Of a DNA stretch of 64,000 bases, positions 3,062 through 37,668 are shown one piece after another. The number at the start of each line of letters is the position of its first letter. Positions within the stretch are counted from its first letter, which is position 1. Position numbers and translations under genes: made by a program. The DNA comes from an uncultured Actinomycetota bacterium (GTDB lineage Bacteria; Actinomycetota; Actinomycetes; JACCUZ01). Under the pieces are notes generated by a model, which saw only the letters and a program-made list of their open reading frames with translations, was not told the origin of the DNA and made no database searches. The DNA is taken from positions 363,849 to 427,848 of the forward strand of contig CAWCFV010000002.1 of NCBI GenBank assembly GCA_963794995.1. The letters run 5' to 3'.

Positions 3062-3230
3062 TCCGCCGGGGTCGTCGACCGCACACCGGCAGCCGGCCGG
3101 CGTACGGTCCCCCTCTGTCGCGGGTGCTCCAGAGCTGCCTCGACCGCGTGGTCCTGGGTGCCTGAGAGGTTCCGGGGAGGTTGCCCCTTCGGCGCCGCAC
3201 CGAGTGGCTGGTGCGGTCTCTCCCACGCGG
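3062..3230 (-). promoter_or_regulatory. Glycine riboswitch in the gcvP 5' leader (aptamer 1 clear; second aptamer degenerate or ghost)
   Basis: Minus-strand RNA reads GGGAGAGACCGCACC..GGCGCCGAAGGGGCAACCUCCCC..CUCUCAGGCA, followed by CUCUGGAGCACC... This matches the conserved glycine-aptamer motifs GGAGAG and CCGAAGGGGCAA and the P1 closing CUCUCAGG. It sits immediately 5' of gcvP. Confidence 0.7.
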
Positions 3231-3266
3231 GTTCGTGAGCAGGCTCACCCTACCCCGGGGCGGGCC

Positions 3267-11250: not shown

Positions 11251-11841
11251 TCACGCCGCGACCCCCTCCGGCTCGACGCGCACAAGGGCGCGCACCTGGA
11301 CCAGGTACAGGACACCTGCCCACCAGTACAGCGCCGTACCCCAGATGGTGAAAGCCCAGCCGAAGGCGTGGGCGACGTCCCCCACGACGCTGGTCCACTG
11401 GCCGAGGAGGATCAGCGGGAGCCCGGACAACAGGTTGAAGGTGGCTGCCTTGCCCAGGTAGTGGACGGGCAGCGGGCCGTACCCGTGGCGCCGTAGGACG
11501 GGCAGGGTCGTCGCGAGGACGAGGTCGCGGCCGACCAGCACCAGGGTGAGCCACAGCGGGACCACGCCGCGGATCGTCAGTCCGACCAGCGTCGCCAGGA
11601 TGTACAGGCGGTCGGCGGCCGGGTCGAGCAGCGTCCCCAGCCGGCTGGTCTGCCCCCAGGCCCGGGCGATCTTGCCGTCGAGGTAGTCGGTGACGCCGCT
11701 GACCATGAGCACCAGCACCGCCGGCCCGTCGTGCCCGGTGAGCACCAGCCAGAAGAACACCGGGACGCCGACCAGCCGGAGCACGCTGAGCGCGTTGGGC
11801 AGCGTCACCACCCGGTCGCTCGGTGTCACGGCTGCCGGCAC
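11251..11841 (-). CDS. CDP-alcohol phosphatidyltransferase family protein (PgsA-like; Rv1822 position)
   Basis: 196 aa polytopic membrane protein with the CDP-OH_P_transf motif ..[27 protein letters not shown].. Confidence 0.8.
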
Positions 11842-11914
11842 GGGCAGGTCCCCTCTCCCCTGGGCCGGGTCCGCGGCCCACGTCGTCCGAGCCTAGTCGG
11901 ACCGTCAGACCCGC

Positions 11915-11984
11915 TCGTTTGCGACCTGAGCCCCCGACACGCCGGGGTATCCCCCGGCGTGTCGGGGAGCCAGGTCGCAAACGA
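11915..11984. repeat. 70-bp nested-palindrome repeat element, copy 1 (MITE/REP-like)
   Basis: Outer inverted repeat TCGTTTGCGACCTG...CAGGTCGCAAACGA flanks an inner perfect 13-bp hairpin CGACACGCCGGGG-tatc-CCCCGGCGTGTCG. A second copy (about 87% identical) lies at 39239-39308. Confidence 0.7.
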
Positions 11985-12020
11985 TCATCCGTCGAGGAGC
12001 TCGCGCCCGGTGGCGCAGGG

Positions 12021-13931
12021 TCAGCGGACGCGCCGGCCGGTCTCGGCGGTGGAGTAGCCGCCCAGCGCCTCGACCGAGGCCCGGAAGGCCGGGTCGTCCA
12101 GGAGTGCGAGCAGCGGGTCGAGGACGCCGGAGCCCAGCGTCTCGGGCGTCGTCACCAGGTCGTACGGCTCCTCGGCCACCGGCACGAAGTCCAGCCCGAA
12201 GGCTGCGGCCGCCGCCCGGATGCCGAGGCCGGTGTCGACCCGTCCCGCTGCGACGGCCGCGGCCACCGCGAGGTGGGTGCTCTCCTCGCGGCCGTAGCCG
12301 GTGACGTCGGCCGTGGCGACACCGAGGCGGGACAGCTCGTGGTCGAGCAGCACCCGGGTGCCGGCACCGCGCTGGCGGTTGACGTAGCGCAGGCCGTCGC
12401 GGGCCAGGTCGGTGACGCCGCTGAGGCCGAGCGGGTTCCCGGGCGCGACGATCAGCCCCTGCTGCCGGTGCACCAGCCGGACCACCGCCCCCTTCCCCTC
12501 GCCGAGGACGCGGTCCAGGTACGGCAGCGTGTACGCACCGGTCGCGGGGTCGAGCAGGTGCGAGCCGGCGACATGGCACAGCCCGTCGCGCACGGCGGCC
12601 AGCCCGCCGAGCGAGCCCACGTTGGACGACACCAGGGTCAGGCCCGGGTCACGTTCGCGCAGCGCGGACGCCGCGAGGTCCAGGACGAGGTCGTGCGACC
12701 CGATCGCGACGATGCTGCGGGAGACCTCGTCGAGGCCACGCAGCAGCTCGACCTCGACCTGCTCCCCCGCGTGGTGCCCCTCGAGCCCGGCCGGGACGAC
12801 GAGCAGGCCGTCCGCGCGCACGAGGGACGTGAGCACCCCGGCGCCGCGGGGCAGCGGGGTCGCCACGACCTGGCCGCCGACCACGCCGAGGCGGACGCGG
12901 ACCCAGTCGTCCGAGCCCGCCTGCGAGGCGAGCTTGCGGGCCAGCCGGGCGGTGGTGGTCGGGCGGCGGACGGGAGCCGCCCCCTCGAGCCCCGCCAGCA
13001 GCGGCGCGGCGAAGATGTCGAACGTCAGCGCCGCCGACACGGGGAAGCCGGGCGCACCCAGCACCGGGGTCGCGTCGACCACCCCGAGCACGACCGGATG
13101 GCCCGGCCGGACGGCGACGCCGTGGACGGCGAGGACCCCCTCGTCGGCCACCACCTGCGCCGTCCAGTCGTCACGCCCCGCGCTGGACCCCGCGAGCACG
13201 ATCACCAGGTCGCTGACGGCGGCCGCGTCGTGCACCGCGGCGGCGAGGAGGGCGGGCCGGTCCGGCACGACCGCCGTGACGGTCGCCGCCACGCCGAGCT
13301 GCCGGGCCTGCGCGGACAGCATCAGCGAGTTGGTCTCCGGGATCTCGCCGGCGCCGAGCGGCTCCCCCACGGCGCGGATCTCGTCGCCGGTGGGGATCAC
13401 CGTGATCCGGGGCGTCCGGCGCACGAGCAGCTCGGTGAGCCCGGCCGCCGCAGCCGCCGCCAGGTCGTAGGGCCGCAGACGGTGACCGGACGGCAGCAGC
13501 AGCTCGGTCGCCGCGACGTCCTCGCCGACGTGGCGCACATGGGTCCACGGTGCGACGGCCGCGCGCAGCTCGGCACCGGCCGGTGAGTGGTGCACGTGCT
13601 CGCGCATGACGACCGCGTCGCGACCGGCCGGCACCGGGTCGCCCGTGTCCACGACGTCGAACTGGCCCGGGTGCAGGACCACCGGGGTGCTCTCGGCGGC
13701 GCCGTACGTGTCGGTCGCGCGCACGGCGATGCCGTCCATGGCCGCCGCGTCGTAGTCGGGCGAGGACCGCCGGGCCCATACCGGCTCGGCGGTGACGCGC
13801 CCGAGGGCCACGCCGACCGGGACCGTCACGGCCTCGACCCGGTCGGGGCAGCCGGCACCTTGACAGGCGTGACGCCACGCAGCGGTCGCCTCGGCCGCCG
13901 GCACGTCGTGGACGAACGGGCTCTCGCTCAC
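12021..13931 (-). CDS. moeA: Molybdopterin molybdotransferase MoeA fused to a C-terminal PBP-like (molybdate/tungstate-binding-like) domain
   Basis: The MoeA domains start at VSESPFVHDVPAAEATAAW.. and include the GDE/GAG regions. A C-terminal domain of about 230 aa (..SIVAIGSHDLVLDLAASA..HLLDPATGAYTLPYL..) resembles the PBP_like domain found on MoeA and ModE proteins. GTG start forms a GTGA overlap with the upstream moeA stop. Confidence 0.8.
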   Translation of the reverse strand: MSESPFVHDVPAAEATAAWRHACQGAGCPDRVEAVTVPVGVALGRVTAEPVWARRSSPDYDAAAMDGIAVRATDTYGAAESTPVVLHPGQFDVVDTGDPVPAGRDAVVMREHVHHSPAGAELRAAVAPWTHVRHVGEDVAATELLLPSGHRLRPYDLAAAAAAGLTELLVRRTPRITVIPTGDEIRAVGEPLGAGEIPETNSLMLSAQARQLGVAATVTAVVPDRPALLAAAVHDAAAVSDLVIVLAGSSAGRDDWTAQVVADEGVLAVHGVAVRPGHPVVLGVVDATPVLGAPGFPVSAALTFDIFAAPLLAGLEGAAPVRRPTTTARLARKLASQAGSDDWVRVRLGVVGGQVVATPLPRGAGVLTSLVRADGLLVVPAGLEGHHAGEQVEVELLRGLDEVSRSIVAIGSHDLVLDLAASALRERDPGLTLVSSNVGSLGGLAAVRDGLCHVAGSHLLDPATGAYTLPYLDRVLGEGKGAVVRLVHRQQGLIVAPGNPLGLSGVTDLARDGLRYVNRQRGAGTRVLLDHELSRLGVATADVTGYGREESTHLAVAAAVAAGRVDTGLGIRAAAAAFGLDFVPVAEEPYDLVTTPETLGSGVLDPLLALLDDPAFRASVEALGGYSTAETGRRVR

Positions 13932-15184
13932 CGGTACAGCGTGACGTCGACGTCGGCGCCGGCCGGCAGCCCGGTGGCGTCCTCGGCCACGGAGATCCAC
14001 CCGTCCGCCGCGGTGAGCACCGACAGCAGCGCCGAGGCGCCGAACAGCGGTGTCGCGGTGTCGCCTTCGCGGGCGCGCACCAGGCGGACCTGGACGATGT
14101 CGCGCCGACCTGTCTGCGACGCCACCTGGCGGTCGAGCCGGGCTCGCACGACCGGCTCGGGCGGGGGCCGGGTGACACCGGCGAGCCGGCGCACCAGCGG
14201 CACGCCGACGAGCCGGAACACCACCAGGGCCGAGAGCGGGTTGCCGGGTAGCCCCACCACCGGCACTCCCCCGCAGTCGGCGAGAAGCGTGGGCTTGCCC
14301 GGTCGGACGGCCAGGCCGTGGCACAGGATCCCGGGCGGGCCGAGCCTGGACACGGCGTCGGCGGTCTCGTCGCGGGCCCCGACCGAGGAGCCTGCGGAGA
14401 CCACCACCACGTCGCAGCCGGCAACCGCCTCCCGCAGCACCGACTCCAGCGTCGTCGCGTCGTCGGGCACGATCCCGAGCAGCACCGGCTCGCCACCCGC
14501 CTCCCGGACGATCCCCGCGAGCGCCGACGCCGTGGCGTCGCGCACCTGGCCGGGACGCAGCACCGGGGTCCCCGGCGGGACCACCTCGTCCCCGGTGGAC
14601 AGCACCCCGACGCGCGGCCGCCGGTGGACCGCCACCTCGACGACCCCGGCGGCTGCCAGCAGGCCGAGGTCCTGCGCCCGGAGGGGTCGCCCGGAGGGGA
14701 CCAGCACCGACCCGGCGGCGACGTCCTCGTCGGCCCGGACCGTGCCGTCACCAGGAGCGGCCGGGCGGGTCACCTCGACCGAGCCCGGCATCGTCTGCTG
14801 GGTGTGCTCCACCATCACGACGGCGTCCGCACCGTCGGGCAGGACCGCCCCGGTCGGTACGGCGACCGCGGCTCCGCTGCGGACCGCGACCTCCGGGGGC
14901 CGGCCCATCGCCACGGCCCCCACCAGCTCGAGGTACGACGGCATGGCCTCCGTGGCCCCGAAGGTGTCGGCGGCCCGGACGGCGAACCCGTCGACGGTCG
15001 ACCGGGCGAAACCGGGCAGCGGTCGCGTGGCGGTGACCACAGCAGCCGGGGTCCGGCCGAGCAACGCGTCGAGGCCGACAGGCTCGGCCCCGGTCGGGGC
15101 GAGGTCCGTGAGCAGCGCGAGGGCGGCATCCACCGTGACCGTCGTGAAGAACTCGCGCCCCACGGCGCGGGCAGGAGGAGGCAC
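13928..15184 (-). CDS. moeA: Molybdopterin molybdotransferase MoeA (stand-alone paralog)
   Basis: 418 aa with classical MoeA architecture (..VAEDATGLPAGADVDVTLYR C-terminus). Alternative GTG start 3 nt downstream of the fdsGB stop. Confidence 0.85.
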   Translation of the reverse strand: MPPPARAVGREFFTTVTVDAALALLTDLAPTGAEPVGLDALLGRTPAAVVTATRPLPGFARSTVDGFAVRAADTFGATEAMPSYLELVGAVAMGRPPEVAVRSGAAVAVPTGAVLPDGADAVVMVEHTQQTMPGSVEVTRPAAPGDGTVRADEDVAAGSVLVPSGRPLRAQDLGLLAAAGVVEVAVHRRPRVGVLSTGDEVVPPGTPVLRPGQVRDATASALAGIVREAGGEPVLLGIVPDDATTLESVLREAVAGCDVVVVSAGSSVGARDETADAVSRLGPPGILCHGLAVRPGKPTLLADCGGVPVVGLPGNPLSALVVFRLVGVPLVRRLAGVTRPPPEPVVRARLDRQVASQTGRRDIVQVRLVRAREGDTATPLFGASALLSVLTAADGWISVAEDATGLPAGADVDVTLYR

Positions 15185-15187
15185 CGG

Positions 15188-16879
15188 CTAGTCCCGCGGC
15201 TGCGGCCGGGCGACCGCACCGCCGCGGTGCAGGCCGAGCACGCTGGCGACCGGGCCCAACGCGACCTGCCCCAGCCCGCAGATCGAGGTCTTGCGCAGCG
15301 TCCGCTCCAGCTCGACGACCTGCGCCTCGCCGTCGTCGTCGAGACCGCCCGCCGCCAGCGCGGTGGTCAGGATCGTGTGGGCCTTGGTGGAGCCCACCCG
15401 GCACGGGACGCACTTGCCGCACGACTCGTCGCGGAAGAACCGCAGGACGTTCGTGGCGGCCGCGAGCAGGTCGGTGCCCTCGGCCATCACGACCAGCGCT
15501 CCGGAGCCGAGCATGCTGCCCGCCTCGGCGAGGGCGTCGAAGTCGAGGCGCGCGTCCAGGCCGTCCGGGCCGAGGAAGTTCGACGAGGCGCCGCCGGGCT
15601 GCACGGCCGCGAGGGCTCGTCCTCCGGACACGCCGCCGGCCAGGTCGAGCAGCGAGCGCGCGGTGGTGCCCATCGGCACGCAGTAGACGCCCGGTCGTTC
15701 GACGTGGCCGGACACGGCGAAGAACTTCAGGCCGTGCGACTCCCCGTCGCCCTGGTCCTTCCACCACTGCGCACCACGGCTGACGATCACCGGGACGTCG
15801 GCGAAGGTCTCGACCGAGTTCATCAGCGTCGGCCGCCCCCAGAGTCCGTGGACCGCGGGGAACGGGGGCTTGTTCCGGGGCTCGCCACGGTGGCCCTCCA
15901 TGCACTCGAGCAACGCCGACTCCTCGCCGAGGATGTAGCCGCCGGGAGAGACGAACACCTCGACCGAGAGCCGTCGGCCGCTGCCCAGCACGTCGGCCCC
16001 GAGCAGGCCCTCGCGGCGCAGCAGGTCGAGCTCGGCACGGATCACGTCGGTCTCCGGGCCGTACTCGTGCCGTACGAAGACCCACCCCTCCTCGGCTCCG
16101 ACGACGACCATCCCGAGGAGCAGCCCCTCGAGCACGAGGTGCGGCTGGTCGGCGAGGATCTGCCGGTCCTTGAAGGTTCCCGGCTCGGACTCGTCGGCGT
16201 TGCACACGACGTAGGCCGGACGGGCCTCCTGCCCCGCGACCATGGCCCACTTCCGGCCGGTCGGGAAGCCGGCGCCGCCCATCCCCCGCAGGCCGGACTC
16301 GGTCAGTGCGGTGACGACCTCGTCGCCGGTGAGGTCGCCGGCGAGCACCCGGCGCAGGACCTGGTAGCGCTGCTGCCCCTCGGCGTACGGGTCGTTGGGC
16401 CACGGCTCAGCGCGGCCGGACGGGGTCGGCCCCGCGGCGGGGACCTCGTCGGCCCGGGCCGCCTCGACGAGCGCGACGGCGTCCTCGCCGGCCGCGGGCT
16501 GCTCGTCCACCGCGACGGCAGGGGCGATGTCGCAGCGTCCGAGGCACGACACCTCGCGCACCTCGACATCGGCGTCGTCGTCGTAACGCTGCCGCAGGCC
16601 GGCGATCCCGTCGTCGCCCTCGCGCAGCCAGCAGCTGAGGTCGTGGCACAGGTGCAGGGACACCCGGGGCGGCGGCTCGGTGCGGAAGTGGGGATAGAAG
16701 GACACCAGGCCCTGGATCTCGTACAGCGGCCGGCCGGCCTCCTGCGAGAGCGCCACCAGCTCCTCCCGGGGGAGCCAGCCGCGCCGCTCCTGGATGGCGT
16801 GCAGCGCGGGGATCAGGCTCGGCCCGGGAAAACGGCCGTTGCGGGCCTCCGCCCCGGGCGCCCGTCGTCCGTCCGTCAC
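15188..16879 (-). CDS. NAD(H)-linked diaphorase subunit, fused NuoE-like and NuoF-like (FdsG-FdsB-type formate dehydrogenase beta/gamma)
   Basis: The N-terminus is a thioredoxin-like 2Fe-2S domain (..LIPALHAIQERRGWLP..CHDLSC..CLGRC). This is followed by the 51-kDa NuoF core (GMGGAGFPTGRKW.., FMN/NADH sites, CGKCVPCRVG 4Fe-4S). The GTG start at 16877-16879 overlaps the fdhA stop (GTGA). Confidence 0.85.
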   Translation of the reverse strand: MTDGRRAPGAEARNGRFPGPSLIPALHAIQERRGWLPREELVALSQEAGRPLYEIQGLVSFYPHFRTEPPPRVSLHLCHDLSCWLREGDDGIAGLRQRYDDDADVEVREVSCLGRCDIAPAVAVDEQPAAGEDAVALVEAARADEVPAAGPTPSGRAEPWPNDPYAEGQQRYQVLRRVLAGDLTGDEVVTALTESGLRGMGGAGFPTGRKWAMVAGQEARPAYVVCNADESEPGTFKDRQILADQPHLVLEGLLLGMVVVGAEEGWVFVRHEYGPETDVIRAELDLLRREGLLGADVLGSGRRLSVEVFVSPGGYILGEESALLECMEGHRGEPRNKPPFPAVHGLWGRPTLMNSVETFADVPVIVSRGAQWWKDQGDGESHGLKFFAVSGHVERPGVYCVPMGTTARSLLDLAGGVSGGRALAAVQPGGASSNFLGPDGLDARLDFDALAEAGSMLGSGALVVMAEGTDLLAAATNVLRFFRDESCGKCVPCRVGSTKAHTILTTALAAGGLDDDGEAQVVELERTLRKTSICGLGQVALGPVASVLGLHRGGAVARPQPRD

Positions 16880-19773
16880 GCCGGTGCCCCCGCGGCCTCG
16901 AGCCTCACGGCGCAGAACTTGAACTCCGGGATCTTCCCGACCGGGTCGACCTCGTCGATGGTGAGCAGGTTGGCGGCTGCCTCCCGGAAGTGGAAGGGGA
17001 TGAAGACGTTGCCACGCGCCTCGCGGGTGGACACCCGCAGGTGCAGCTCGATCCGGCCGCGTCGCGAGCTCACTCTGACCATCTCGCCGTCGACCAGCCC
17101 GAGCTCGCGGGCGTCCTCCGGGTGCACGTACACCTCCGCGCGTGGGGCGATCGTGTCGAGGGCGAACGACCGCCGGGTCATCGAGCCGGTGTGCCAGTGC
17201 TCCAGCAGGCGACCGGTGTTGAGCACCAGCGGGTACTCGTCGTCCGGCAGCTCCTTGGCCGGCAGCCACTCCGCGGCGACGAGGTGCGCCAAGCCGTCGC
17301 CGGTGTTGAACCGGTCGTCGAACATCACGACGGTGCCGTCGGAGTGCTCGGGGTCGTCGTTCGGGTACAGCTTGCCCGTGCCACCGAGGACCTCCCAGTC
17401 GAGGTTCCGGTAGCTCGGCATCAGCCCGACCATCTCGTCGAAGACCTCGCTCGGCGAGACGTAGTCCCAGTCGAGACCGACCCGGCGCGCGATCTCCTGG
17501 GTGATCCACCAGTCCTCGCGCGCGTCACCGGGCGGGTCCAGGACCTTGCGGCCGCGCTGCACCCGCCGGTCGGTGTTGGTGTACGTGCCCTCCTTCTCGA
17601 GGTACGAGGTCGCCGGCAGGATCACGTCGGCGAACTCCGCCGTCTCGGTCACGAAGATGTCCTGCACCACGAGGAAGTCCAGCGCCGACAGCGCCTTGCG
17701 CACCTTGTTGGTGTTCGGGTCGGACATGAACGGGTTCTCGCCCATCATGTACATGGCGCCGACCCCTGGACCGCCCTTGGGGGACCCGTCCAGGATCGAG
17801 TGCACGATCTCGGTGACGGTCAGGCCGCGCCCGGTGGGCAGTGGTGACGACCAGGCCTGCTCGAAGCGGGCCACGACCCCGGCGTCGTCGGCGGACTGGT
17901 AGTCGGGGAAGAACATGGGGATCAGACCCGAGTCCGACGCCCCCTGCACGTTGTTCTGACCGCGCAGCGGGTGCAGACCGGCGCCCGGCTTGCCGACGTT
18001 GCCGGTGATCGCGCACAGCGCGATCAGGCAGCGGGCGTTGTCGGTACCGGTGGTGTGCTGCGAGATGCCCATCCCCCAGAAGATGATGCCGGCTGCCGCC
18101 TCGCCCCAGACCTTCGCGACCTTGCGGATCAGCCTGGCCGGCACGCCGGTGATCTGCTCACCCCGCTCGGGCGGGTAGTCGGCGACGGTGCGCGCCAGAT
18201 CGTCGTAGCCGCTCGTGCGGTCGGTGACGTACTTCTCGTCGACAAGACCGGTCGCGATGATCTCGTGCATCACCGAGTTGTAGAAGGCGACGTCCGTGCC
18301 GGGCTTGAGCTGGCAGAAGATGTCCGCGTGGTCAGCCATCTTGTCGGCGCGGGGGTCGACGTAGATGATCGTCGTCCCGTTGCGACGCGCCTGCTTGAAG
18401 AACGACGACGCGACCGGATGGTTCGCGGTGGCGTTGCTGCCGGTGATCAGGGCGACCTCGGAGTTGACGACGTCGCCGTACGTCGTCGACACCGCGCCGG
18501 AGCCGATCCCTTCGAACAGCGCGGCCACGCTGCTGGCGTGGCACAGCCGGGTGCAGTGGTCGATGTTGTTCGACGTGAAGGCCGTGCGGATCAGCTTCTG
18601 GAACAGGTAGGCCTCCTCGTTGCTGCACTTGGCCGAGCCGAAGCCCGCGATCCCGTCGGGGCCTCTCTGGTCGTGGACCTCGCGCAGTCTGCGGGCGACC
18701 AGGTCGAGGGCCTCGTCCCAGGTGGCCTCCCGGAAGTGCGGCAGCACCTCCTCGTAGGGCACCAGGCCTCCCGGCTTGGTCCGCCGCCGGCCCTCGCCCT
18801 GCTGGTCGTCGTCGGCTCGCTGGTCACCCCGGACGTCTCCCGTCAGCGGGCCCTTGGGATAGGACTCCTCGCGCCGGATCAGGGGCACCGTGAGCCGTTG
18901 CGGCGAGGCGGCGTAGTCCCACCCGTAGCGCCCCTTGACGCAGAGGCGTCCCTTCGAGCCCGGCTGGTCGCGGCCGTCGGCGAACGCGATCGCCCCCCGC
19001 TCCCGGTCGACGAAGTAGGTGAGCGCGCAGCCGACGCCGCAGTAGGGGCAGACGCTCTCGACGGCCTCCAGCTCGGTACGCGGCCGGATCGGGATCTCGC
19101 GGATCGGCTTGTTGGTGAGGGCGCCGGTGGGGCAGGACGCCACGCACTCCCCGCAGGTGACGCAGGAGGACGCACCCATCGGGTCGTCGAGGTCGAAGGA
19201 GATCCTGGTCGCGTAGCCCTTCCCTGACCGGCCGATGACGTCGTTGCCCTGGAGGTCGTCGCAGGCCCGGACGCAGCGGTCGCACAGGATGCACGCGTCG
19301 TGGTCCACGGCGATCACGGGGTTGGACATGTCGGTGCCCCGGCCCCCGCCGCGCGGCAGGTCCCCGGCCGCGACGTCGTACCGCGCGGCCAGGCCGAGCA
19401 GCAGGTTGTCGCCGGTGGTGGTCTGCTTCGGGTCGTCCTCAGGAGCGGGCTGGTCGGCGACCAGCAGCTCGGTGAGGGTCGCGCGGCTGCGCTCGATCTC
19501 GTCAGAGGTGGTGGTGACCTCCATGCCGTCCTCGCACGGACGCACGCAGGCGGCGGCGTAGACGCGGCCGCCGACGTCGACCACGCACATCCGGCACACA
19601 CCGACGGGGTCCATCCGCTCGTCGTGACACAGCACGGGGATGTCGATGCCGGCGTCGCGCGCCGCGGTCCAGATCGTGGTGCCCTCGGCCACGCTGAGGC
19701 TGCGCCCGTCGACGGTGACCTCGACGGTTCTCGGCGTGGTCTGCGTCGGCGGCGCGTCAGCGGTCGCGGTCAC
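16876..19773 (-). CDS. fdhA: Formate dehydrogenase catalytic (alpha) subunit, Mo/W-bisPGD, cysteine-type, with NuoG-like Fe-S N-terminus
   Basis: 965 aa. N-terminal 2Fe-2S/4Fe-4S modules (CHDERMDPVGVCRMC.., CILCDRCVRAC, CVTCGECVASCP). The active-site stretch TRLCHASSVAAL matches the FdhF RVUHGPSVAGL region with Cys in place of Sec. GTG start overlaps the AOR stop (GTGA). Confidence 0.9.
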   Translation of the reverse strand: MTATADAPPTQTTPRTVEVTVDGRSLSVAEGTTIWTAARDAGIDIPVLCHDERMDPVGVCRMCVVDVGGRVYAAACVRPCEDGMEVTTTSDEIERSRATLTELLVADQPAPEDDPKQTTTGDNLLLGLAARYDVAAGDLPRGGGRGTDMSNPVIAVDHDACILCDRCVRACDDLQGNDVIGRSGKGYATRISFDLDDPMGASSCVTCGECVASCPTGALTNKPIREIPIRPRTELEAVESVCPYCGVGCALTYFVDRERGAIAFADGRDQPGSKGRLCVKGRYGWDYAASPQRLTVPLIRREESYPKGPLTGDVRGDQRADDDQQGEGRRRTKPGGLVPYEEVLPHFREATWDEALDLVARRLREVHDQRGPDGIAGFGSAKCSNEEAYLFQKLIRTAFTSNNIDHCTRLCHASSVAALFEGIGSGAVSTTYGDVVNSEVALITGSNATANHPVASSFFKQARRNGTTIIYVDPRADKMADHADIFCQLKPGTDVAFYNSVMHEIIATGLVDEKYVTDRTSGYDDLARTVADYPPERGEQITGVPARLIRKVAKVWGEAAAGIIFWGMGISQHTTGTDNARCLIALCAITGNVGKPGAGLHPLRGQNNVQGASDSGLIPMFFPDYQSADDAGVVARFEQAWSSPLPTGRGLTVTEIVHSILDGSPKGGPGVGAMYMMGENPFMSDPNTNKVRKALSALDFLVVQDIFVTETAEFADVILPATSYLEKEGTYTNTDRRVQRGRKVLDPPGDAREDWWITQEIARRVGLDWDYVSPSEVFDEMVGLMPSYRNLDWEVLGGTGKLYPNDDPEHSDGTVVMFDDRFNTGDGLAHLVAAEWLPAKELPDDEYPLVLNTGRLLEHWHTGSMTRRSFALDTIAPRAEVYVHPEDARELGLVDGEMVRVSSRRGRIELHLRVSTREARGNVFIPFHFREAAANLLTIDEVDPVGKIPEFKFCAVRLEAAGAPA

Positions 19774-21674
19774 GTCTGGGTCCTGCCCCTCGTCGGCACC
19801 TTGCCAGCAATGTCGTCACCCTCACCCACGGCGTCCGCCGTGTCCACCACCCGGCCCGGCCGCGTCCCGCTGTGCGGCACCGGCGGTCCGGCCGGCCGCC
19901 CCTGCGGGTCCAGGCCCCGGGCCGCCCAGTAGCCGTCGACCATCGAGCGCAGCCGCTCCGGTGTGAGCCGGGCCGTGCGGCCGGACGGCAGCTCGAGGGC
20001 CTCGGCGAGCAGCCGGGGCGGCAGCCAGTCGTCCTCGGCCCGCCAGCCCTCGCGCAGGTTGTACTCGCGCTTGGCCAGCACGATGCGCCGGGCGGTGGCC
20101 CGTAGCTCGTCGGCGTCCATGTCCCAGCCCGTGACGAGGGACAGCAGACCGGCCCACTCCCCCCACGGCGCGTCCGGGTCGTCCGGGTCGGTGAACACGC
20201 CGCGGAGGAACTTGCACAGGATCATCGAGTCGATCGCGGCCGCACGGTCCTCGGTCTCGATGGCGGCGCGGACGTGCTCCGGGCCACCGTCCAGCCGGTC
20301 GAGGTCGCCGCTGAGGTCGGCCTCGTAGGCGCCCGACCGGTTGTGGTCGGCACCGCGCGCGTTGACCGCCAGCCCGAGCGCCATCGCGTGCAGCGAGCGC
20401 GGCTCGTAGCCGGGCAGCTCCAGCCCCTTGACGTGCACGGCGTACGCCGCGGTCCCGTTGCCCAGCTGCTCGGCCGCGGCGCGGGAGCCGAGTGCCAGCA
20501 GCGGGCCGATGCCGGTCCCGCGGCCGATCTCGTCCAGCGCGCGCAGCAGGGCGGAGCCGTCGCCGAACCGCAGCCAGGGCGCGTCGAGCAGCCCCCGCTC
20601 GGCGCACTCCATCGCCCAGGCGATGGTCCCGCCGGCGGAGATGGTGTCGATGCCGAGGTCGTCGCAGCGGGCGCTCGCCTCGAGGACGTCGTCGGGGTCG
20701 GCCACCCCGCAGAGCGGACCGAGGGCGAAGACGTTCTCGTACTCCACCCGCGCCGTCCGACCGCCCCCGGCGCCGGACGTCCGGTAGATGTGCTCGCAGC
20801 CGATCGAGCAGGACGCGCAGCTGCTGCGCGCGTGGCCACGCAGGTCGGCCAGCTCCTCGGCGGCCAGGGCCGGCGCGCCCTCGAAGGTCGACTCCTGGAA
20901 GTTGCGCGACGGCAGTGTCGAGAGCGCGTTGAAGGCCAGCAGGTTGGCGAGGGTCCCGAGCTCGCGGTACTTCGCGGTCGCGGCGCCCAGAGATCGGGTG
21001 CGCAGGTCCTTGGCGGCGGCGACCACGCCGGCCGGGTCGGCCGGGGCGACCTTGGTGCGCGGCCGGACCGCGACCGCCTTGAGGTTCTTGGCGCCGAGGA
21101 CGGCACCGAGGCCGCCCCGCCCGGCGTGCCGGCCGTCGTGCGACACGGTGGCGTAGCGGACGCCGCGCTCGCCCGCCGGCCCGATCGCGGCCACCCGGAA
21201 CGCCCGCCCGAAACGGGAGCGGACCGACTCCTCGGTCTCGGCGGCCGTCGTGCCCACCTCGTCGTCGGCCGGCTCCAGTCGGACCGCGTCGCCGTCGACC
21301 AGCAGCACGCTCGGCCGGGCGGCGCGGCCGACGACGACGATCGCGTCGTGACCGGTGAGCTTCCCGGCGATCGCGAAGTGACTGGACGCCAGGGCGTCGG
21401 TGAGCATCCCGGTGAGCGGGGACTTGGCGACGACGGCGAACTTCGCACTGGTGGTCAGCGGGGTGCCGACCAGGGGCGAGAACACGAACGCGAGCGGCGC
21501 CTCGGGGGCGAGCGCGTCGACGCCCGGGGGCGACAGGTCGAGCAGCAGCCGGACACCCAGCCCCGCCCCGCCGAGGTGCTCGCGCAGGACCCGGTCGGGC
21601 AGCGCCACCAGCCGGCTGGTGCCGTCGGTCACGTCGACCACCAGAGCCCGCCCGAAGTAGCCGCCGGGGGCCAC
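19770..21674 (-). CDS. Aldehyde:ferredoxin oxidoreductase family protein (tungsto-/molybdopterin AOR)
   Basis: The AOR N-terminal domain begins ..GGYFGRALVVDVTDG.. and contains ..AVVAKSPLTGMLTD... The catalytic domain has a CxxCxxxC 4Fe-4S motif and EHIY..GPLCG..DDLGIDTISAGGTIAWAMEC motifs. GTG start at 21672-21674 lies 1 nt after the mobA-moaD stop. Confidence 0.85.
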   Translation of the reverse strand: MAPGGYFGRALVVDVTDGTSRLVALPDRVLREHLGGAGLGVRLLLDLSPPGVDALAPEAPLAFVFSPLVGTPLTTSAKFAVVAKSPLTGMLTDALASSHFAIAGKLTGHDAIVVVGRAARPSVLLVDGDAVRLEPADDEVGTTAAETEESVRSRFGRAFRVAAIGPAGERGVRYATVSHDGRHAGRGGLGAVLGAKNLKAVAVRPRTKVAPADPAGVVAAAKDLRTRSLGAATAKYRELGTLANLLAFNALSTLPSRNFQESTFEGAPALAAEELADLRGHARSSCASCSIGCEHIYRTSGAGGGRTARVEYENVFALGPLCGVADPDDVLEASARCDDLGIDTISAGGTIAWAMECAERGLLDAPWLRFGDGSALLRALDEIGRGTGIGPLLALGSRAAAEQLGNGTAAYAVHVKGLELPGYEPRSLHAMALGLAVNARGADHNRSGAYEADLSGDLDRLDGGPEHVRAAIETEDRAAAIDSMILCKFLRGVFTDPDDPDAPWGEWAGLLSLVTGWDMDADELRATARRIVLAKREYNLREGWRAEDDWLPPRLLAEALELPSGRTARLTPERLRSMVDGYWAARGLDPQGRPAGPPVPHSGTRPGRVVDTADAVGEGDDIAGKVPTRGRTQT

Positions 21675-21675
21675 C

Positions 21676-22527
21676 TCAGCCGCCCGCGTCGGCGGAGAGG
21701 AACGCCACGGCGTCACCCGCGTGCAGCGGCAGCTCGGGGTCGCGTCCGGTCTGGTCGCCGTTGACGGCAGCGAGGACGTGCCTGTCCAGCGGAAGGTCGA
21801 CCGACGACGCGGCCTCCCCGACCGTCGCGGCCGGCACGGTGCGGGCCCCGCGGCCGTGCCGCGTCGCGAGGACCCCGAAGCACTCGACCGTCACCGCCGG
21901 ACCGGGACGCGCACGGGCCGCGGCGTAGTCGTCCGGTTCGTTGACGTTCAGCACCGACTCCAAGGTGGGGTCGGCCTCCCGCAGCACCGGGTCACGGAGC
22001 AGCTCGTCGTCGTCGAGGCGCAGCACCGTCGCCTGCTCGAACACGAAGGCCGGGCGCAGCCGATCGGCCGCCACGAGCGCCGACACCCGGTCGGCCAGGC
22101 GGGTGCGGTAGGCCGCGGCGAGCGGCTGCGGGTACCCCCGAGCCACCGGCAGCACGACGTCGAGCCCCGGGTCGGTCCCGAGGGGTCGCACCACCCTGCG
22201 GACGAAGGCCGGGTGCAGGAACGGCAGGTCGGTCGAGCAGATGAACGCCGCCTGGGCCCGGCCGGTCAGCGCGGCCAGCCCGACGGCGATGCCTTGAAGC
22301 GGTCCCCGGCCCTCGCGCGGGTCGTCGACGACCTCGACGCCCTCGGGCAGCGGCGGCAGCGGCTGGCCCGGCGCGCGGACCACCAGCAGCGGCCCGAGCC
22401 CGGCACGCTCCAGCACGGCGCAGGTCCGGCGCAGCAGGGTCGAGCCGTGCCACTCGAGGTCGGCCTTGGCCCGGCCCATGCGCGACGACCGGCCCCCTGC
22501 CAGCACGACGCCGGCGTACCCGGCCAT
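21676..22527 (-). CDS. mobA: Molybdenum cofactor guanylyltransferase MobA fused to a C-terminal MoaD/ThiS-like ubiquitin-fold domain ending in Gly-Gly
   Basis: N-terminus ..AGVVLAGGRSSRMGRAKADL.. is the MobA fold. The C-terminal 85 aa (..VTVECFGVLATRHG..LAAVNGDQTGRDPELPLHAGDAVAFLSADAGG*) aligns to MoaD, including the terminal GG. ATG at 22525-22527; an alternative GTG start lies at 22552-22554. Confidence 0.8.
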   Translation of the reverse strand: MAGYAGVVLAGGRSSRMGRAKADLEWHGSTLLRRTCAVLERAGLGPLLVVRAPGQPLPPLPEGVEVVDDPREGRGPLQGIAVGLAALTGRAQAAFICSTDLPFLHPAFVRRVVRPLGTDPGLDVVLPVARGYPQPLAAAYRTRLADRVSALVAADRLRPAFVFEQATVLRLDDDELLRDPVLREADPTLESVLNVNEPDDYAAARARPGPAVTVECFGVLATRHGRGARTVPAATVGEAASSVDLPLDRHVLAAVNGDQTGRDPELPLHAGDAVAFLSADAGG

Positions 22528-22872
22528 CGCCTCGTCGTCCTGCGCGCGCTCCACCTGCCGATCGTAGGCACGTGCTCCCGTGCCCGTGTGACCGCGTCAC
22601 GGTCCGTGGCCGTCCTCTCACGGTGGGGCCGCCGGCGTCCTCTGGTCGGGTGGTCGTCGTCGGTTGTGGCAGCGACGCGCCACGCGCGGTCGTAGGTTCG
22701 CGGGGATCAGGACGCAGAGATCCGAGCCGTCCTCACCGGCCTCCTCGGAGGCACGGAGAGACGCGGTCGCCTAGACGGCTCGGGGAGCGAATGGCGAGAC
22801 CGACCCAGGAGACAGCCGCTGCCGGCGGCGCGAGGGGTGGGGTGACCGATGGCGTTCCCGAGGTCCACGACG

Positions 22873-24735: not shown

Positions 24736-24897
24736 TTCGCCTCCTCGCTGGGTCGTCCCCCCACTGTGGCCGCTCCCGCGGCCGGCTCGCCGGGGCCGGA
24801 CGGCACCCCCGCCCGGGACGTCCGGCCGGAGCGGCGGGCCGAAGGTCCGGGCCCTTCTGCCCTGTCCCCGGCACGGGTCGCGCGATGGGGTGGGGGC

Positions 24898-27604
24898 ATG
24901 GCCGCGACGACCACTCGGGCGAACGCGCCCCAGCACAGCCTGGACCAGTACGACGTGGTGGTCCTCCTGGGCAGCGACCCCAAGCGGGGGCTCACGGAGG
25001 CCGAGGCGGCGCAGCGGCTGGAGCGCTTCGGGCCGAACGTCCTGCCGGCCACCGCGGGCGTCTCGGCGCTCCGCCGGCTCCTCCGGCAGCTGCAGCACCC
25101 GCTCATCTACGTGCTGCTGGCAGCAGGTGCGGTGACCCTCGCACTCGGCGAGTACGTGGACTCCGCCGTCATCTTCGGGGTCGTCGTCGTGAACGCGGTC
25201 GTCGGCTACATCCAGGAGTCGCACGCCGAGGCGGCCCTGGACGCGCTGCGGGCGATGGTCCGCACCCGGGCCAGCGTGGTGCGTGACGGCCGGGCGCGCA
25301 TCATCGCCTCCGACGGGCTCGTCCCCGGTGACCTCGTCCGGCTGGAGGCCGGCGACAAGGTGCCCGCCGACCTGCGCGTCCTGCGCCACGCCGAGCTCAA
25401 CGTGGACGAGTCGGCGCTGACCGGCGAGTCGCTGCCGGTGGCCAAGGACGAGGCGGCCCTCCCGCTGGGCACCGCCGTCGCCGACCGCCGGAACATGCTG
25501 CACTCGAGCACGCTGGTCACGCACGGCAGGGCCTCGGCGATCGTCGTCGCGACCGGTGCCGACACCGAGATCGGCCGCATCCACCGCCTGGTCGGCACGG
25601 CCGACGTCCTCGCCACCCCCCTGACCCGCAAGCTGTCCTGGTTCAGCAAGGTGCTGACCGTGGTCATCCTCGGCCTGGCGGTCGTGACCTTCGCGATCGG
25701 CGTCCTGCGCGGCGAGCCGGTGGCAGGCATGGTGACGGCAGCGGTCGCCCTCGCGGTCGGTGCGATCCCTGAGGGGCTGCCCGCCGCGGTGACCATCACC
25801 CTGGCGATCGGCGTCTCCCGGATGGCCAGGCGCCGCGCCGTGATCCGCCGGCTGCCGGCCGTCGAGACCCTCGGCAGCACGACCGTGATCTGCACCGACA
25901 AGACCGGGACCCTCACCTCGAACCAGATGACGGTCCGGTCGCTGTGGACCCCGGCGGACCGGCTGGCCGTCACCGGTGTCGGCTACTCGCCGGACGGCCT
26001 GCTCACCGACGAGAGCGGACAGGTCGCGCTTCCCGGACCGGACAGTGCGGCGCACCTGAGCCTGCTGGCGGCGGCACTGTGCAACGACGCCCGGCTGGGC
26101 GAGGGCGCCCACCGGCTGGGAGGTCGTCGGCGACCCCACCGAGGGTGCCCTGCTCGTCGCGGCCGGCAAGGCGGGCTTCGACCTGGACGGCATCCGGGAG
26201 GACCTGCCTCGGACGTCCACGGTGCCTTTCACCTCCGAGCGCCGCTTCATGGCGACGCTTCACCAGGGCGGGACCACCGGCTCTCCGATGGTCCTCGTCA
26301 AGGGCGCCGTGGAGCGCGTCCTGCTCATGTGCGCCGACCAGCTGGGGGCCGGCGGTCGGGCCGCCCCGCTCGATCACGACGCCGTCACGGCTGAGGCCGA
26401 GCGGCTGGCGTCGGACGGGTTCCGCGTGCTCGCCACCGCCGTGTGCTCCGGTCCCGACTGCCGGCTCGACGAGGAGTCGCTGACCGGCACCCTGACGCTC
26501 ACCGGCCTGCTGGCGATGCACGACCCGCCCAGACCTGACGCCCGCGCTGCGGTGGAGAACTGTCACGCGGCGGGCATCGAGGTGAAGATGATCACCGGGG
26601 ACCATGCCGGGACGGCCCGGGCCATCGCGGCTCGGGTCGGGATCCTCCCCGAGCACGAGACCGGGGCCGTGCTCACCGGCCGTGACCTGGACGTCCTGTC
26701 CGACGACGAGTACGCCGACGCGGTCGACCAGGTGAGCGTGTTCGCGCGGGTGTCCCCCGAGCAGAAGCTGCGCCTGGTGCGGGCGCTCCAGACGCGCGGC
26801 CACGTGGTCGCGATGACCGGTGACGGCGTGAACGACGCCCCGGCCCTGCGGCAGGCGGACATCGGCGTCGCCATGGGTCGCGGGGGCACGGAGGTCGCCA
26901 AGGAGGCGGCCGACATGGTGCTGACCGACGACGACTTCGCCACGATCGAGGAGGCGGTGGAGGAGGGTCGCGGCGTCTTCGACAACCTGACCAAGTTCAT
27001 CGTGTGGACGCTGCCGACGAACATGGCCGAGGGCCTGGTCATCCTCGTGGCCATCGTCCTCGGGCAGGTGCTGCCGATCCTCCCGGTCCAGATCCTCTGG
27101 ATCAACATGACGACCGCCGTCGCCCTCGGCCTGATGCTGGCCTTCGAGCCCCGCGAGCCGGGCATCATGACGCGCCCGCCCCGGGACCCGTCCCGGCCGC
27201 TGCTCACCGGTGCCCTCGTGAGCCGCATCCTGCTGGTGTCGGCGCTGCTGGTGGGTGGCGCCTGGTGGGCCTTCGAGTGGGAGCGCGCCGCCGGGGCGTC
27301 CCTGGCCGAGTCGCGGACGGTGGCGCTCAACCTGTTCGTGACCGTCGAGGTGTTCTACCTGTTCGCCTGCCGGTCGCTGACCCAGCCGGTGCGCCGGATC
27401 GGCTACCTCAGCAACCACTGGGTCCTCGGTGGCGTGGCCGTCCAGGTCGTCGGCCAGGTCGCACTGACCTACCTGCCGGTCATGAACAGGCTGTTCCACA
27501 CGGCTCCCGTGTCGGCCGAGTCCTGGCTGCGCATCCTGGTCGTCGCGGTGCTGGCCTCGGTGGTCGTCGGGGTGGACAAGCGCCTCCGGCACCAGCCGAT
27601 GTAG
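24898..27604 (+). CDS. P-type cation-transporting ATPase (P2-type, Ca2+/Mg2+-like); apparent frameshift near 26105-26125
   Basis: Listed ORFs 24766..26394 and 26222..27604 together contain TGES, DKTGTLT, ..WEVVGDPTEGALL.., TGDHAGTA, MTGDGVNDAPAL and 10 TM segments. The two halves lie in frames 1 and 2 and join at ..CNDARLGEG / WEVVGDPTE. Confidence 0.85.
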
Positions 27605-31430: not shown

Positions 31431-31506
<76 letters not shown>

Positions 31507-37488: not shown

Positions 37489-37517
37489 CGGGCACCGCGA
37501 CGTCGCCGACGCCCGGC

Positions 37518-37668
37518 GTGCTGCCTCCCATCCGGACTGTCACCGTCGGTCCCGGAGTTCCACCGGGTCAACCGGCCGGGCGTCCCACGTGGCTCGTGGG
37601 CTGCTCGGACGCGGGTCGCGGACTGTCACCGCCGGTTCGGAGTTGCACCGACCCCGGAGCACGCGTAC
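37518..37668 (-). promoter_or_regulatory. FMN riboswitch (RFN element) in the ribD leader
   Basis: Minus-strand RNA has the two duplicated half-motifs GGUGCAACUCCGAACCGGCGGUGACAGUCC and GGUGGAACUCCGGGACCGACGGUGACAGUCCGGAUGGGAGG. The P1 helix GUGCUCC...GGGAGGCAGCAC closes them. It sits immediately 5' of the rib operon. Confidence 0.75.

Follow-up and report, generated by a model that had tools for sequence, protein, structure and literature searches.

A compact group of six minus-strand genes, at positions 12021-22554 of a 64-kb stretch of DNA from an uncultured actinomycete (64,000 nucleotides of contig CAWCFV010000002.1; the whole stretch is hereafter called the window), brings together a MobA-MoaD fusion, an AOR-family enzyme (AOR, aldehyde:ferredoxin oxidoreductase), the two subunits of a predicted NAD-linked formate dehydrogenase (FDH), and two MoeA proteins. 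We interpret this cassette as a self-contained tungsten module in which a single operon would encode a pair of cytoplasmic tungsten enzymes along with the final stages of cofactor assembly, and we assign this interpretation a probability of roughly 0.6. AOR-family tungsten enzymes are still seen as a speciality of anaerobes, and a 2025 review counts a single aerobic species among the known producers of an AOR. In many lineages of soil actinomycetes, the cassette combines an AOR with a tungsten FDH of the oxygen-tolerant type and cofactor insertion genes of the tungsten type. If expressed, it would imply that tungsten is regularly used in oxic soils, and it would make available hosts that can be cultured, with a full set of maturation genes, for two kinds of enzyme that interest biotechnology: CO2-reducing FDH1-type enzymes and acid-reducing AORs.

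Gene content and layout of the cassette

The six tightly packed open reading frames (ORFs) lie where the original prediction placed them, and both the gene identities and the architecture that it proposed were borne out: the junctions are as claimed, and every domain that it named scores above the Pfam gathering score with the exception of ThiS (17.2 against 22.5 bits). The third-position GC content of the six ORFs is 0.93-0.95, which is typical for a genome of 74% GC (the approximate value of the window) and indicates that they are real genes. Reading the junctions from the sequence, we found a 1-nt spacer between mobA-moaD and the AOR gene (TGA-G-GTG), which places the AOR start at 21674 and not at the longest-ORF start of 21716; GTGA overlaps at the AOR/fdhA, fdhA/nuoEF and moeA/moeA-PBP junctions; and a 3-nt spacer between nuoEF and moeA (TAG-CCG-GTG). 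On the low-coordinate side the cassette is flanked by a CDP-alcohol phosphatidyltransferase, the PgsA-like neighbour that had been expected there.

Immediately upstream of the first gene, a putative -10 element (TACGAT, 22561-22566, minus strand) lies 6 nt before the GTG at 22554, within a conserved motif, GTGCCTACGATCG, that has identical spacing in the window and in two related loci (L001 and L002), is present in a third (L004) and is partly kept in a fourth (L005). We infer that this element may be the -10 box of a leaderless operon transcript. The public gene call for MobA-MoaD (P0121, 283 residues) begins at an internal ATG at 22527; the conserved TACGAT 6 nt before the GTG at 22554 suggests that the longer, leaderless form starting at that GTG is the real one. 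A scan of the region upstream of the operon for the sigma-70 consensus returned no promoter, and no Moco/Tuco riboswitch was found there. At the other end, about 35 nt past the moeA-PBP stop codon, is a long perfect hairpin (11915-11984, minus strand; 70 nt, roughly 32 bases being paired and a U-tract lacking) with a folding energy of -95.6 kcal/mol (z = -9.3 relative to shuffled sequences), which is likely to be either the operon terminator or a palindromic repeat element.

The first gene (21676-22554, minus strand) encodes a MobA-like nucleotidyltransferase (residues ~15-168) followed by a MoaD/ThiS-like beta-grasp domain (residues ~215-292) with a Gly-Gly end. The MobA domain carries the LAGGxxxRMG motif and is recovered by NTP_transf_3 at 110.9 bits, above the gathering score; it stays below the cut-off of every NCBIfam MobA equivalog, with a best score of 103.7 bits against 205. 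Public annotation of the orthologues records the MobA domain only. The C-terminal domain falls under the ThiS cut-off, as noted above, and its terminal Gly-Gly is nearly invariant across the orthologues printed. An AlphaFold2 model of the last ~75 residues has a pLDDT of 90.4, and its top Foldseek matches are the mycobacterial MoaD 6jbz_B (TM 0.75), SAMP1 and Escherichia coli MoaD, with TM values of up to 0.77 among these matches. From the model and the conserved Gly-Gly we assign the domain to the MoaD/ThiS sulfur-carrier fold; it is the counterpart of WorX, a ThiS-like protein of unknown role that is encoded beside many WOR genes (PMC13328260). The fusion provides a concrete lead to the role of WorX.

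The second gene (19770-21674, minus strand) encodes a 634-residue enzyme of the AOR family (WorL) that has no small subunit. The assignment passes the AFOR profile thresholds by a wide range (AFOR_N, 202.2 bits against a cut-off of 29.8; AFOR_C, 332.9 bits against a cut-off of 27). Among solved structures the top relative is Pyrococcus furiosus AOR (1aor; E-value 1.8e-88, 300.8 bits), followed by WorL of Acetomicrobium mobile (9mqx_D); the score against the formaldehyde oxidoreductase FOR is lower, at 250.7 bits. In 20 members of the clade the cluster cysteines C286, C289, C293 and C487, which align to those of P. furiosus AOR, are invariant, as are T241, E311, Y423 and H444. The latter four align to T243, E313, Y427 and H448 of the P. 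furiosus enzyme, which recent reviews regard as typical of aldehyde-oxidising members. Where P. furiosus AOR has His383, which bridges the dimer through Fe, the aligned position of the cassette enzyme is Leu. A polyferredoxin (WorS), WorN and WorABC are absent from the six genes and are not conserved in the 81 loci that we compared. Given the lack of a WorS polyferredoxin and the adjacent ThiS-like, WorX-like domain, the enzyme fits a "Class I" WOR whose WorX-like partner is fused to MobA.

FdhA (16876-19773, minus strand) is an FDH alpha subunit with a NuoG-like N-terminus that contains 2Fe-2S and 4Fe-4S domains. Its Fer2_4, Fer4_Nqo3, Molybdop_Fe4S4, Molybdopterin (242 bits) and Molydop_binding domains all score above the gathering score, and against TIGR01591, the equivalog for the alpha subunit of formate dehydrogenase, it reaches 766 bits where the cut-off is 666. 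The ORF contains no in-frame TGA and is accordingly of the Cys type, as originally proposed. Its top solved relative is the alpha subunit of the tungsten FDH1 of Methylorubrum extorquens (7vw6/7e5z; E-value 1.8e-279, 933 bits), and the active-site motif CTRLCHASSV is identical in the two proteins.

The next gene (15188-16879, minus strand) encodes the FDH beta subunit, a 563-residue NuoE-NuoF fusion of the FMN/NAD-binding type. Its Pfam domains are 2Fe-2S_thioredx, Complex1_51K, SLBB and NADH_4Fe-4S, the last of which stops at residue 548 of 563, and a Pfam search found no C-terminal ferredoxin (Fer4) domain. The top solved relative is the beta subunit of M. extorquens FDH1 (7e5z_B; E-value 4e-104, residues 22-548). 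Because both subunits match FDH1 and NuoEF terminates right after the NuoF cluster domain, FdhA and NuoEF are predicted to constitute a complete NAD-linked enzyme of the FDH1 type, as opposed to a catalytic subunit beside a spare diaphorase. We rejected a classical FdsGBA type for this enzyme: the beta subunit is fused and lies downstream of alpha, and there are no FdsC or FdsD genes. In related loci from the Pseudonocardiaceae the fdhA and nuoEF genes are separated by a gap. We inspected it for a hidden ferredoxin in one of them (L079), where no ferredoxin-like ORF was seen; the longest ORF in this gap is on the opposite strand and appears methyltransferase-like by eye.

The last two genes encode a MoeA of canonical length (13928-15184, minus strand; 418 residues, with MoeA_N, MoCF_biosynth and MoeA_C domains) and its partner, a MoeA fused to a cytoplasmic oxyanion-binding-type PBP_like domain (PF12727), which corresponds to the archaeal "MoeA1" type (12021-13931, minus strand). 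The fused protein contains PBP_like (231.9 bits) beside MoeA_N, MoCF_biosynth and MoeA_C, and a search of the PBP_like domain sequence against solved structures returned no match. The two MoeA copies had been thought to be one of molybdenum type and one of tungsten type, and this does not hold: the best model for both is NF011068, which MoeA-PBP passes (662.7 bits, cut-off 534) and which the canonical-length copy matches at 403 bits, while both fall far under the actinobacterial housekeeping model NF050098 (242 and 206 bits, cut-off 560) and under the Glp model (274 and 219 bits, cut-off 475). Contiguous archaeal-type MoeA pairs have been described in some bacteria, where they co-occur with TupA and tungsten specificity has been proposed (PMC11733289, Commun Biol 2025), and M. 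extorquens has a dedicated tungsten maturation route for FDH1 that includes a dedicated MoeA paralogue (PMC13197769). In 11 related loci, a lipoprotein with a TTTS motif and a PBP_like_2 domain is encoded within 10 kb of the cassette; we identify these lipoproteins as the tungstate-binding protein TupA. The tungsten theme of the original prediction thus appears reasonable, as the FDH is homologous to a solved tungsten enzyme, the MoeA tandem is of the archaeal type and TupA is found near 11 related loci; the AOR and the NAD-linked FDH are probably both tungsten enzymes. In one related locus (L075, 6522-9980, plus strand), mobA-moaD and the AOR gene are separated by genes for a regulator that combines a GntR-type helix-turn-helix with PBP_like (PF12727), then for TupA and then for an ABC ATPase; the GntR-PBP_like protein may regulate the cassette in response to tungstate.

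Distribution and modularity across Actinomycetota

A pattern scan for relatives of the AOR, using one genome per species, identified more than 560 stretches that encode them, of which we took the best 80 matches as loci for comparison; these 80 are 70-86% identical and all belong to Actinomycetota. More than 120 protein clusters are at least 74% identical to the AOR, and its closest relatives (85-88% identity) are in uncultured Actinomycetota and in metagenome-assembled genomes labelled Sporichthyaceae. The best 80 include the genera Geodermatophilus, Kribbella, Murinocardiopsis, Amycolatopsis, Pseudonocardia and Actinophytocola, together with Streptosporangiaceae, Nocardioidaceae, Frankiales, Mycobacteriales, Thermoleophilia and Euzebyaceae. 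The lineages that bear the cassette include the cultured genera Geodermatophilus, Kribbella, Murinocardiopsis and Amycolatopsis, which are known as aerobes; Geodermatophilus ruber DSM 45317, Kribbella sancticallisti JCM 14969 and Murinocardiopsis flavida DSM 45312 each have all six genes. AOR had been supposed to be uncommon in Actinobacteria, a view that is misleading for a clade whose members come from three classes and number at least 80 species-level genomes, although these are absolute counts and not a fraction of Actinomycetota.

The arrangement of the genes is likewise conserved. All six are present and identically ordered in 42 of the 52 loci that have enough flanking sequence, across three classes of Actinomycetota; mobA-moaD is directly upstream of the AOR gene in 78 of 80 loci, and FdhA is downstream of it in 70 of 79. 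Median gaps across the five junctions are 5, 27, -1, 1 and 8 nt, and the 4-nt overlap between the AOR gene and fdhA is present in 16 loci. The flanks show no such conservation: when neighbouring ORFs were clustered, the commonest flanking family was present in no more than 14 of 81 loci, from which we conclude that the cassette is an independent unit and travels as one.

Within this unit, the FDH genes are not always present. Nine loci retain the AOR gene without fdhAB. Three of these (L005-L007) occupy the chromosomal position of the window, with the PgsA-like flank and with mobA-moaD, AOR, moeA and moeA-PBP in place, and fdhAB is cleanly missing; two more (L060 and L074), elsewhere in the phylum, have the same four genes without fdhAB, and in the remaining four (L009, L018, L037 and L073) only mobA-moaD and the AOR gene are retained. 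The AORs of L005-L007, L060, L073 and L074 have their closest relatives in loci that carry fdhAB, which indicates that these genes were lost or gained several times. The two moeA genes, mobA-moaD and AOR thus make up a core into which fdhAB is optionally inserted, and the invariable core is the AOR together with the MobA-MoaD fusion. This pairing merits attention because the cofactors of the AOR family are not known to carry a nucleotide. No WorS or ferredoxin gene was found to replace fdhAB beside the AOR-only variants. In L037, an AIR-synthase-related protein (SelD/ThiL/HypE-like fold family; 11408-12388, plus strand) has a 4-nt overlap with the stop codon of the AOR gene and is a possible additional cofactor-processing partner.

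We also carried out the reverse test, in which FdhA was used as query against metagenome contigs. Among relatives that are at least 71% identical and have upstream sequence, the AOR gene lies directly upstream in 21 of 21 loci; the relatives that come next, at 48-55% identity, show the classical arrangement, in which NuoEF is upstream and an AOR is missing. The original prediction had considered that this gene order might turn out to be widespread and already characterised as an ordinary FdsABG operon with an unrelated neighbour. Widespread it is, given its presence in 42 of 52 loci; however, we found no paper that characterises it, and AOR is not an unrelated neighbour, since every close metagenomic FdhA follows an AOR.

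All parts of the cassette are members of families that have been described. What appears to be undescribed is their conserved combination, the fusion of MobA to MoaD and the spread in genera known as aerobes: our literature search found no description of an actinobacterial AOR-FDH operon, of a MobA-MoaD fusion or of AOR in soil Actinomycetota, and none of the soil actinomycete genera that we searched for is mentioned in the supplementary tables of a 2026 paper on WOR classification. A paper on Actinomycetospora was evaluated as a possible prior description and rejected, as it deals only with selenocysteine Mo-FDHs.

The link between the two enzymes

In the scheme that we favour, whose metal, substrates, electron partners and co-transcription are predicted from sequence, MoeA and MoeA-PBP would insert tungstate into molybdopterin, with the PBP_like domain capturing the oxyanion, as their homologies suggest. 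The MobA domain would then add GMP to yield tungsten-bis-molybdopterin guanine dinucleotide for the FDH and may also help to form the bis-pterin of the AOR, for which the fused MoaD-like domain would act as a WorX sulfur-carrier-like accessory in pterin or sulfur handling. The AOR would function as a single subunit, converting aldehydes to acids by oxidation and handing the electrons to a ferredoxin whose gene lies elsewhere, and FdhA and NuoEF would work alone as a two-subunit NAD-linked FDH of the Methylorubrum FDH1 type. That both enzymes share an operon would reflect their common reliance on one scarce metal and one set of maturation proteins, and this shared need would also account for an FDH clade that is found only inside the cassette and an AOR that occurs free of FDH. 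The best reading is that the enzymes are linked by a shared cofactor supply, possibly with sequential chemistry, rather than by a shared complex.

Several points weigh against this interpretation. The operon contains neither FdhD nor MobB, both of which are required for FDH1 maturation in M. extorquens; there are no tup transporter genes in the window itself; and spacing is the sole basis on which the six genes are predicted to be co-transcribed. The metal is not beyond dispute either, as an AOR-family enzyme of E. coli reportedly uses molybdenum. Shared cofactor supply alone also leaves unexplained why this FdhAB clade was seen only beside an AOR, and likewise why AOR should constantly be followed by FdhA; a metabolic or physical link between the AOR and the FDH would explain both.

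One such link would be sequential one-carbon (C1) chemistry, in which the AOR oxidises formaldehyde or another formate-yielding aldehyde and the FDH takes the formate to CO2 with NAD+, forming a thiol-independent two-step route from aldehyde to CO2. The one-sided dependence described above, with the FdhAB clade found only downstream of AOR and the AOR found also without FdhAB, is what one would expect of an FDH that uses up the AOR product, and the constant order of AOR, FdhA and FdhB, together with the 4-nt AOR/fdhA overlap in 16 loci, points in the same direction. The same dependence is explained equally well if the FDH simply needs the cofactor genes of the cassette, however, and the AOR is nearer to P. 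furiosus AOR than to FOR, in a group whose characterised enzymes have broad aldehyde ranges (PMC13328260); moreover, no C1-pathway gene is conserved nearby in the 81 loci. We consider this route unlikely on present evidence, while noting that it is compatible with the explanation by cofactor supply. A physical complex, as the original prediction had suggested, would have the AOR docked on FdhA-NuoEF and its electrons running through the NuoG-like Fe-S chain to FMN and NAD+, which would make it an NAD-linked AOR that dispenses with WorS. The tight conserved synteny and the absence of a ferredoxin or WorS gene from the operon itself are consistent with such an arrangement, and there are precedents for AOR-family enzymes wired to NuoEFG-like modules, namely WorABCSL (PDB 9mqx; PMC12318220) and BamB-I. 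In AorABC and WorABCSL, the two structurally characterised NAD-linked WORs that oxidise aldehydes, however, a small subunit of the polyferredoxin type forms the link to the NAD module, and the partner of BamB is BamC (PMC13328260, PMC12318220); the connector polyferredoxin of WorABCSL and AorABC is not present here. FdhA, NuoEF and AOR have no extra conserved domain relative to their stand-alone homologues, NuoEF lacks the additional ferredoxin domain of Bfu-type modules, and FdhA and NuoEF share the architecture of an enzyme that works alone. Furthermore, the AOR persists without fdhAB in nine loci, and unrelated genes separate the AOR gene from fdhA in three others (L010, L042 and L047). We also evaluated co-variation with a mirror-tree analysis of evolutionary distances in 25 complete cassettes. 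The raw correlations were uniformly high (0.69-0.87), as expected for genes that are co-inherited; the partial correlations were 0.58 for FdhA-NuoEF, which served as the positive control of true partners, 0.53 for the two MoeA proteins, 0.33 for AOR-MoeA, 0.31 for AOR-MobA-MoaD, 0.14 for AOR-FdhA and -0.01 for AOR-NuoEF, the sample being small and the pairs not independent. This is weak evidence that co-variation ties FdhA to NuoEF and AOR to neither. The proposal that AOR and FDH share one electron-transfer complex consequently gained no positive evidence; it is the least supported of the alternatives, and we deem it very improbable. Membership in the Bfu/WorABCSL group was likewise rejected, as WorS is missing from the operon and from related loci and NuoF has no C-terminal two-cluster ferredoxin domain.

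A different possibility is that the cassette serves as a reductive electron sink under oxygen limitation, with the FDH acting as an NADH-consuming CO2 reductase and the AOR reducing acids with reduced ferredoxin, which would let aerobes rebalance their redox state in hypoxic soil microsites. The window places the cassette near a tandem universal stress protein gene and a P-type ATPase, a pairing typical of mycobacterial hypoxia regulons; this neighbourhood is not conserved in the other loci, however. M. extorquens FDH1 has been described as favouring CO2 reduction (PMC13197769), and AORs are described as the sole enzymes known to reduce acids that are not activated (PMC9295118). Acid reduction would require donors of very low potential, and it seems highly doubtful that this is what the cassette does. 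Finally, the AOR and the FDH1-type enzyme may be one functional unit, either a WorS-free NAD-linked supercomplex, with the AOR delivering electrons directly to the Fe-S chain of FdhA, or a channelled aldehyde-formate-CO2 oxidase, with MobA-MoaD as a dedicated assembly factor for the tungsten bis-pterin. This bolder version would mean that tungsten is routinely used in aerobic soil Actinomycetota, and we regard it as quite unlikely. A tungsten module held together by shared cofactor supply remains the interpretation that we prefer.

Neighbouring features and comparison with known systems

The divergent intergenic region beyond the first gene contains a match to the c-di-GMP-II-GAG riboswitch variant (RF03169; 22701-22814, plus strand) that scores 50.4 bits relative to a gathering score of 40, with its outer stem unpaired. 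It is located 35 nt upstream of an ORF with an ATG start at 22849, the product of which has a signal peptide, is rich in Gly, Pro and Ala, and has no family match. The tandem universal stress protein gene (23887 to ~24750, minus strand) adjoins the P-type cation ATPase, which is split over two overlapping frames on the plus strand (24766-26394 and 26060-27604), one of them encoding the N-terminal and E1-E2 domains and the second the hydrolase and C-terminal domains. The split points to a sequencing error, a frameshift or a pseudogene near 26000-26400. Elsewhere in the window we identified an FMN riboswitch (37514-37666, minus strand), a tRNA gene (31433-31506, minus strand) and a glycine riboswitch (3139-3235, minus strand) just upstream of a large minus-strand ORF (149-2941).

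Of the systems already described, FDH1 of M. extorquens AM1 (7vw6, 7e5z) is closest to the FDH of the cassette in having two subunits, a NuoG-like alpha with the CTRLCHASSV motif and a NuoE-NuoF beta. The cassette FDH differs in its genetic setting, which comprises an AOR, a MoeA pair of archaeal type and a MobA-MoaD fusion, and its host is an actinomycete, whereas M. extorquens is a methylotrophic alphaproteobacterium. The FdsGBACD enzymes of Rhodobacter capsulatus and Cupriavidus necator share their cofactor set with the cassette enzyme, which is predicted from its sequence to oxidise formate with NAD as they do; in these systems, however, FdsG and FdsB are separate and lie upstream of FdsA, while the cassette has alpha followed by a fused beta.

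For the AOR, the nearest counterparts are the Class I ("M type") WORs, among them P. furiosus AOR, the WOR of Brevibacillus massiliensis and WOR87 of Cetobacterium, which have a single large subunit with one [4Fe-4S] cluster, conserved catalytic residues, an adjacent ThiS-like accessory and no small subunit. In the cassette, by contrast, the WorX-like domain forms one protein with a MobA-like nucleotidyltransferase, and the AOR is linked to FDH and MoeA genes in hosts that include aerobic soil actinomycetes. The electron-bifurcating WorABCSL of A. mobile (9mqx) and the benzoyl-CoA reductase BamB-I also place an AOR-family subunit beside NuoE-, NuoF- and NuoG-like proteins, but these complexes depend on a polyferredoxin (WorS or BamC) and on a NuoF of the Bfu type that has an additional ferredoxin domain, neither of which the cassette has, and the NuoG-like protein of the cassette is itself a complete formate dehydrogenase. 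The two MoeA genes, lastly, resemble the archaeal-type MoeA1/MoeA2 pair (PMC11733289) in being adjacent, in the fusion of one copy to PBP and in the presence of TupA in relatives; the cassette pair differs in that it is encoded in an operon with the enzymes that it presumably serves.

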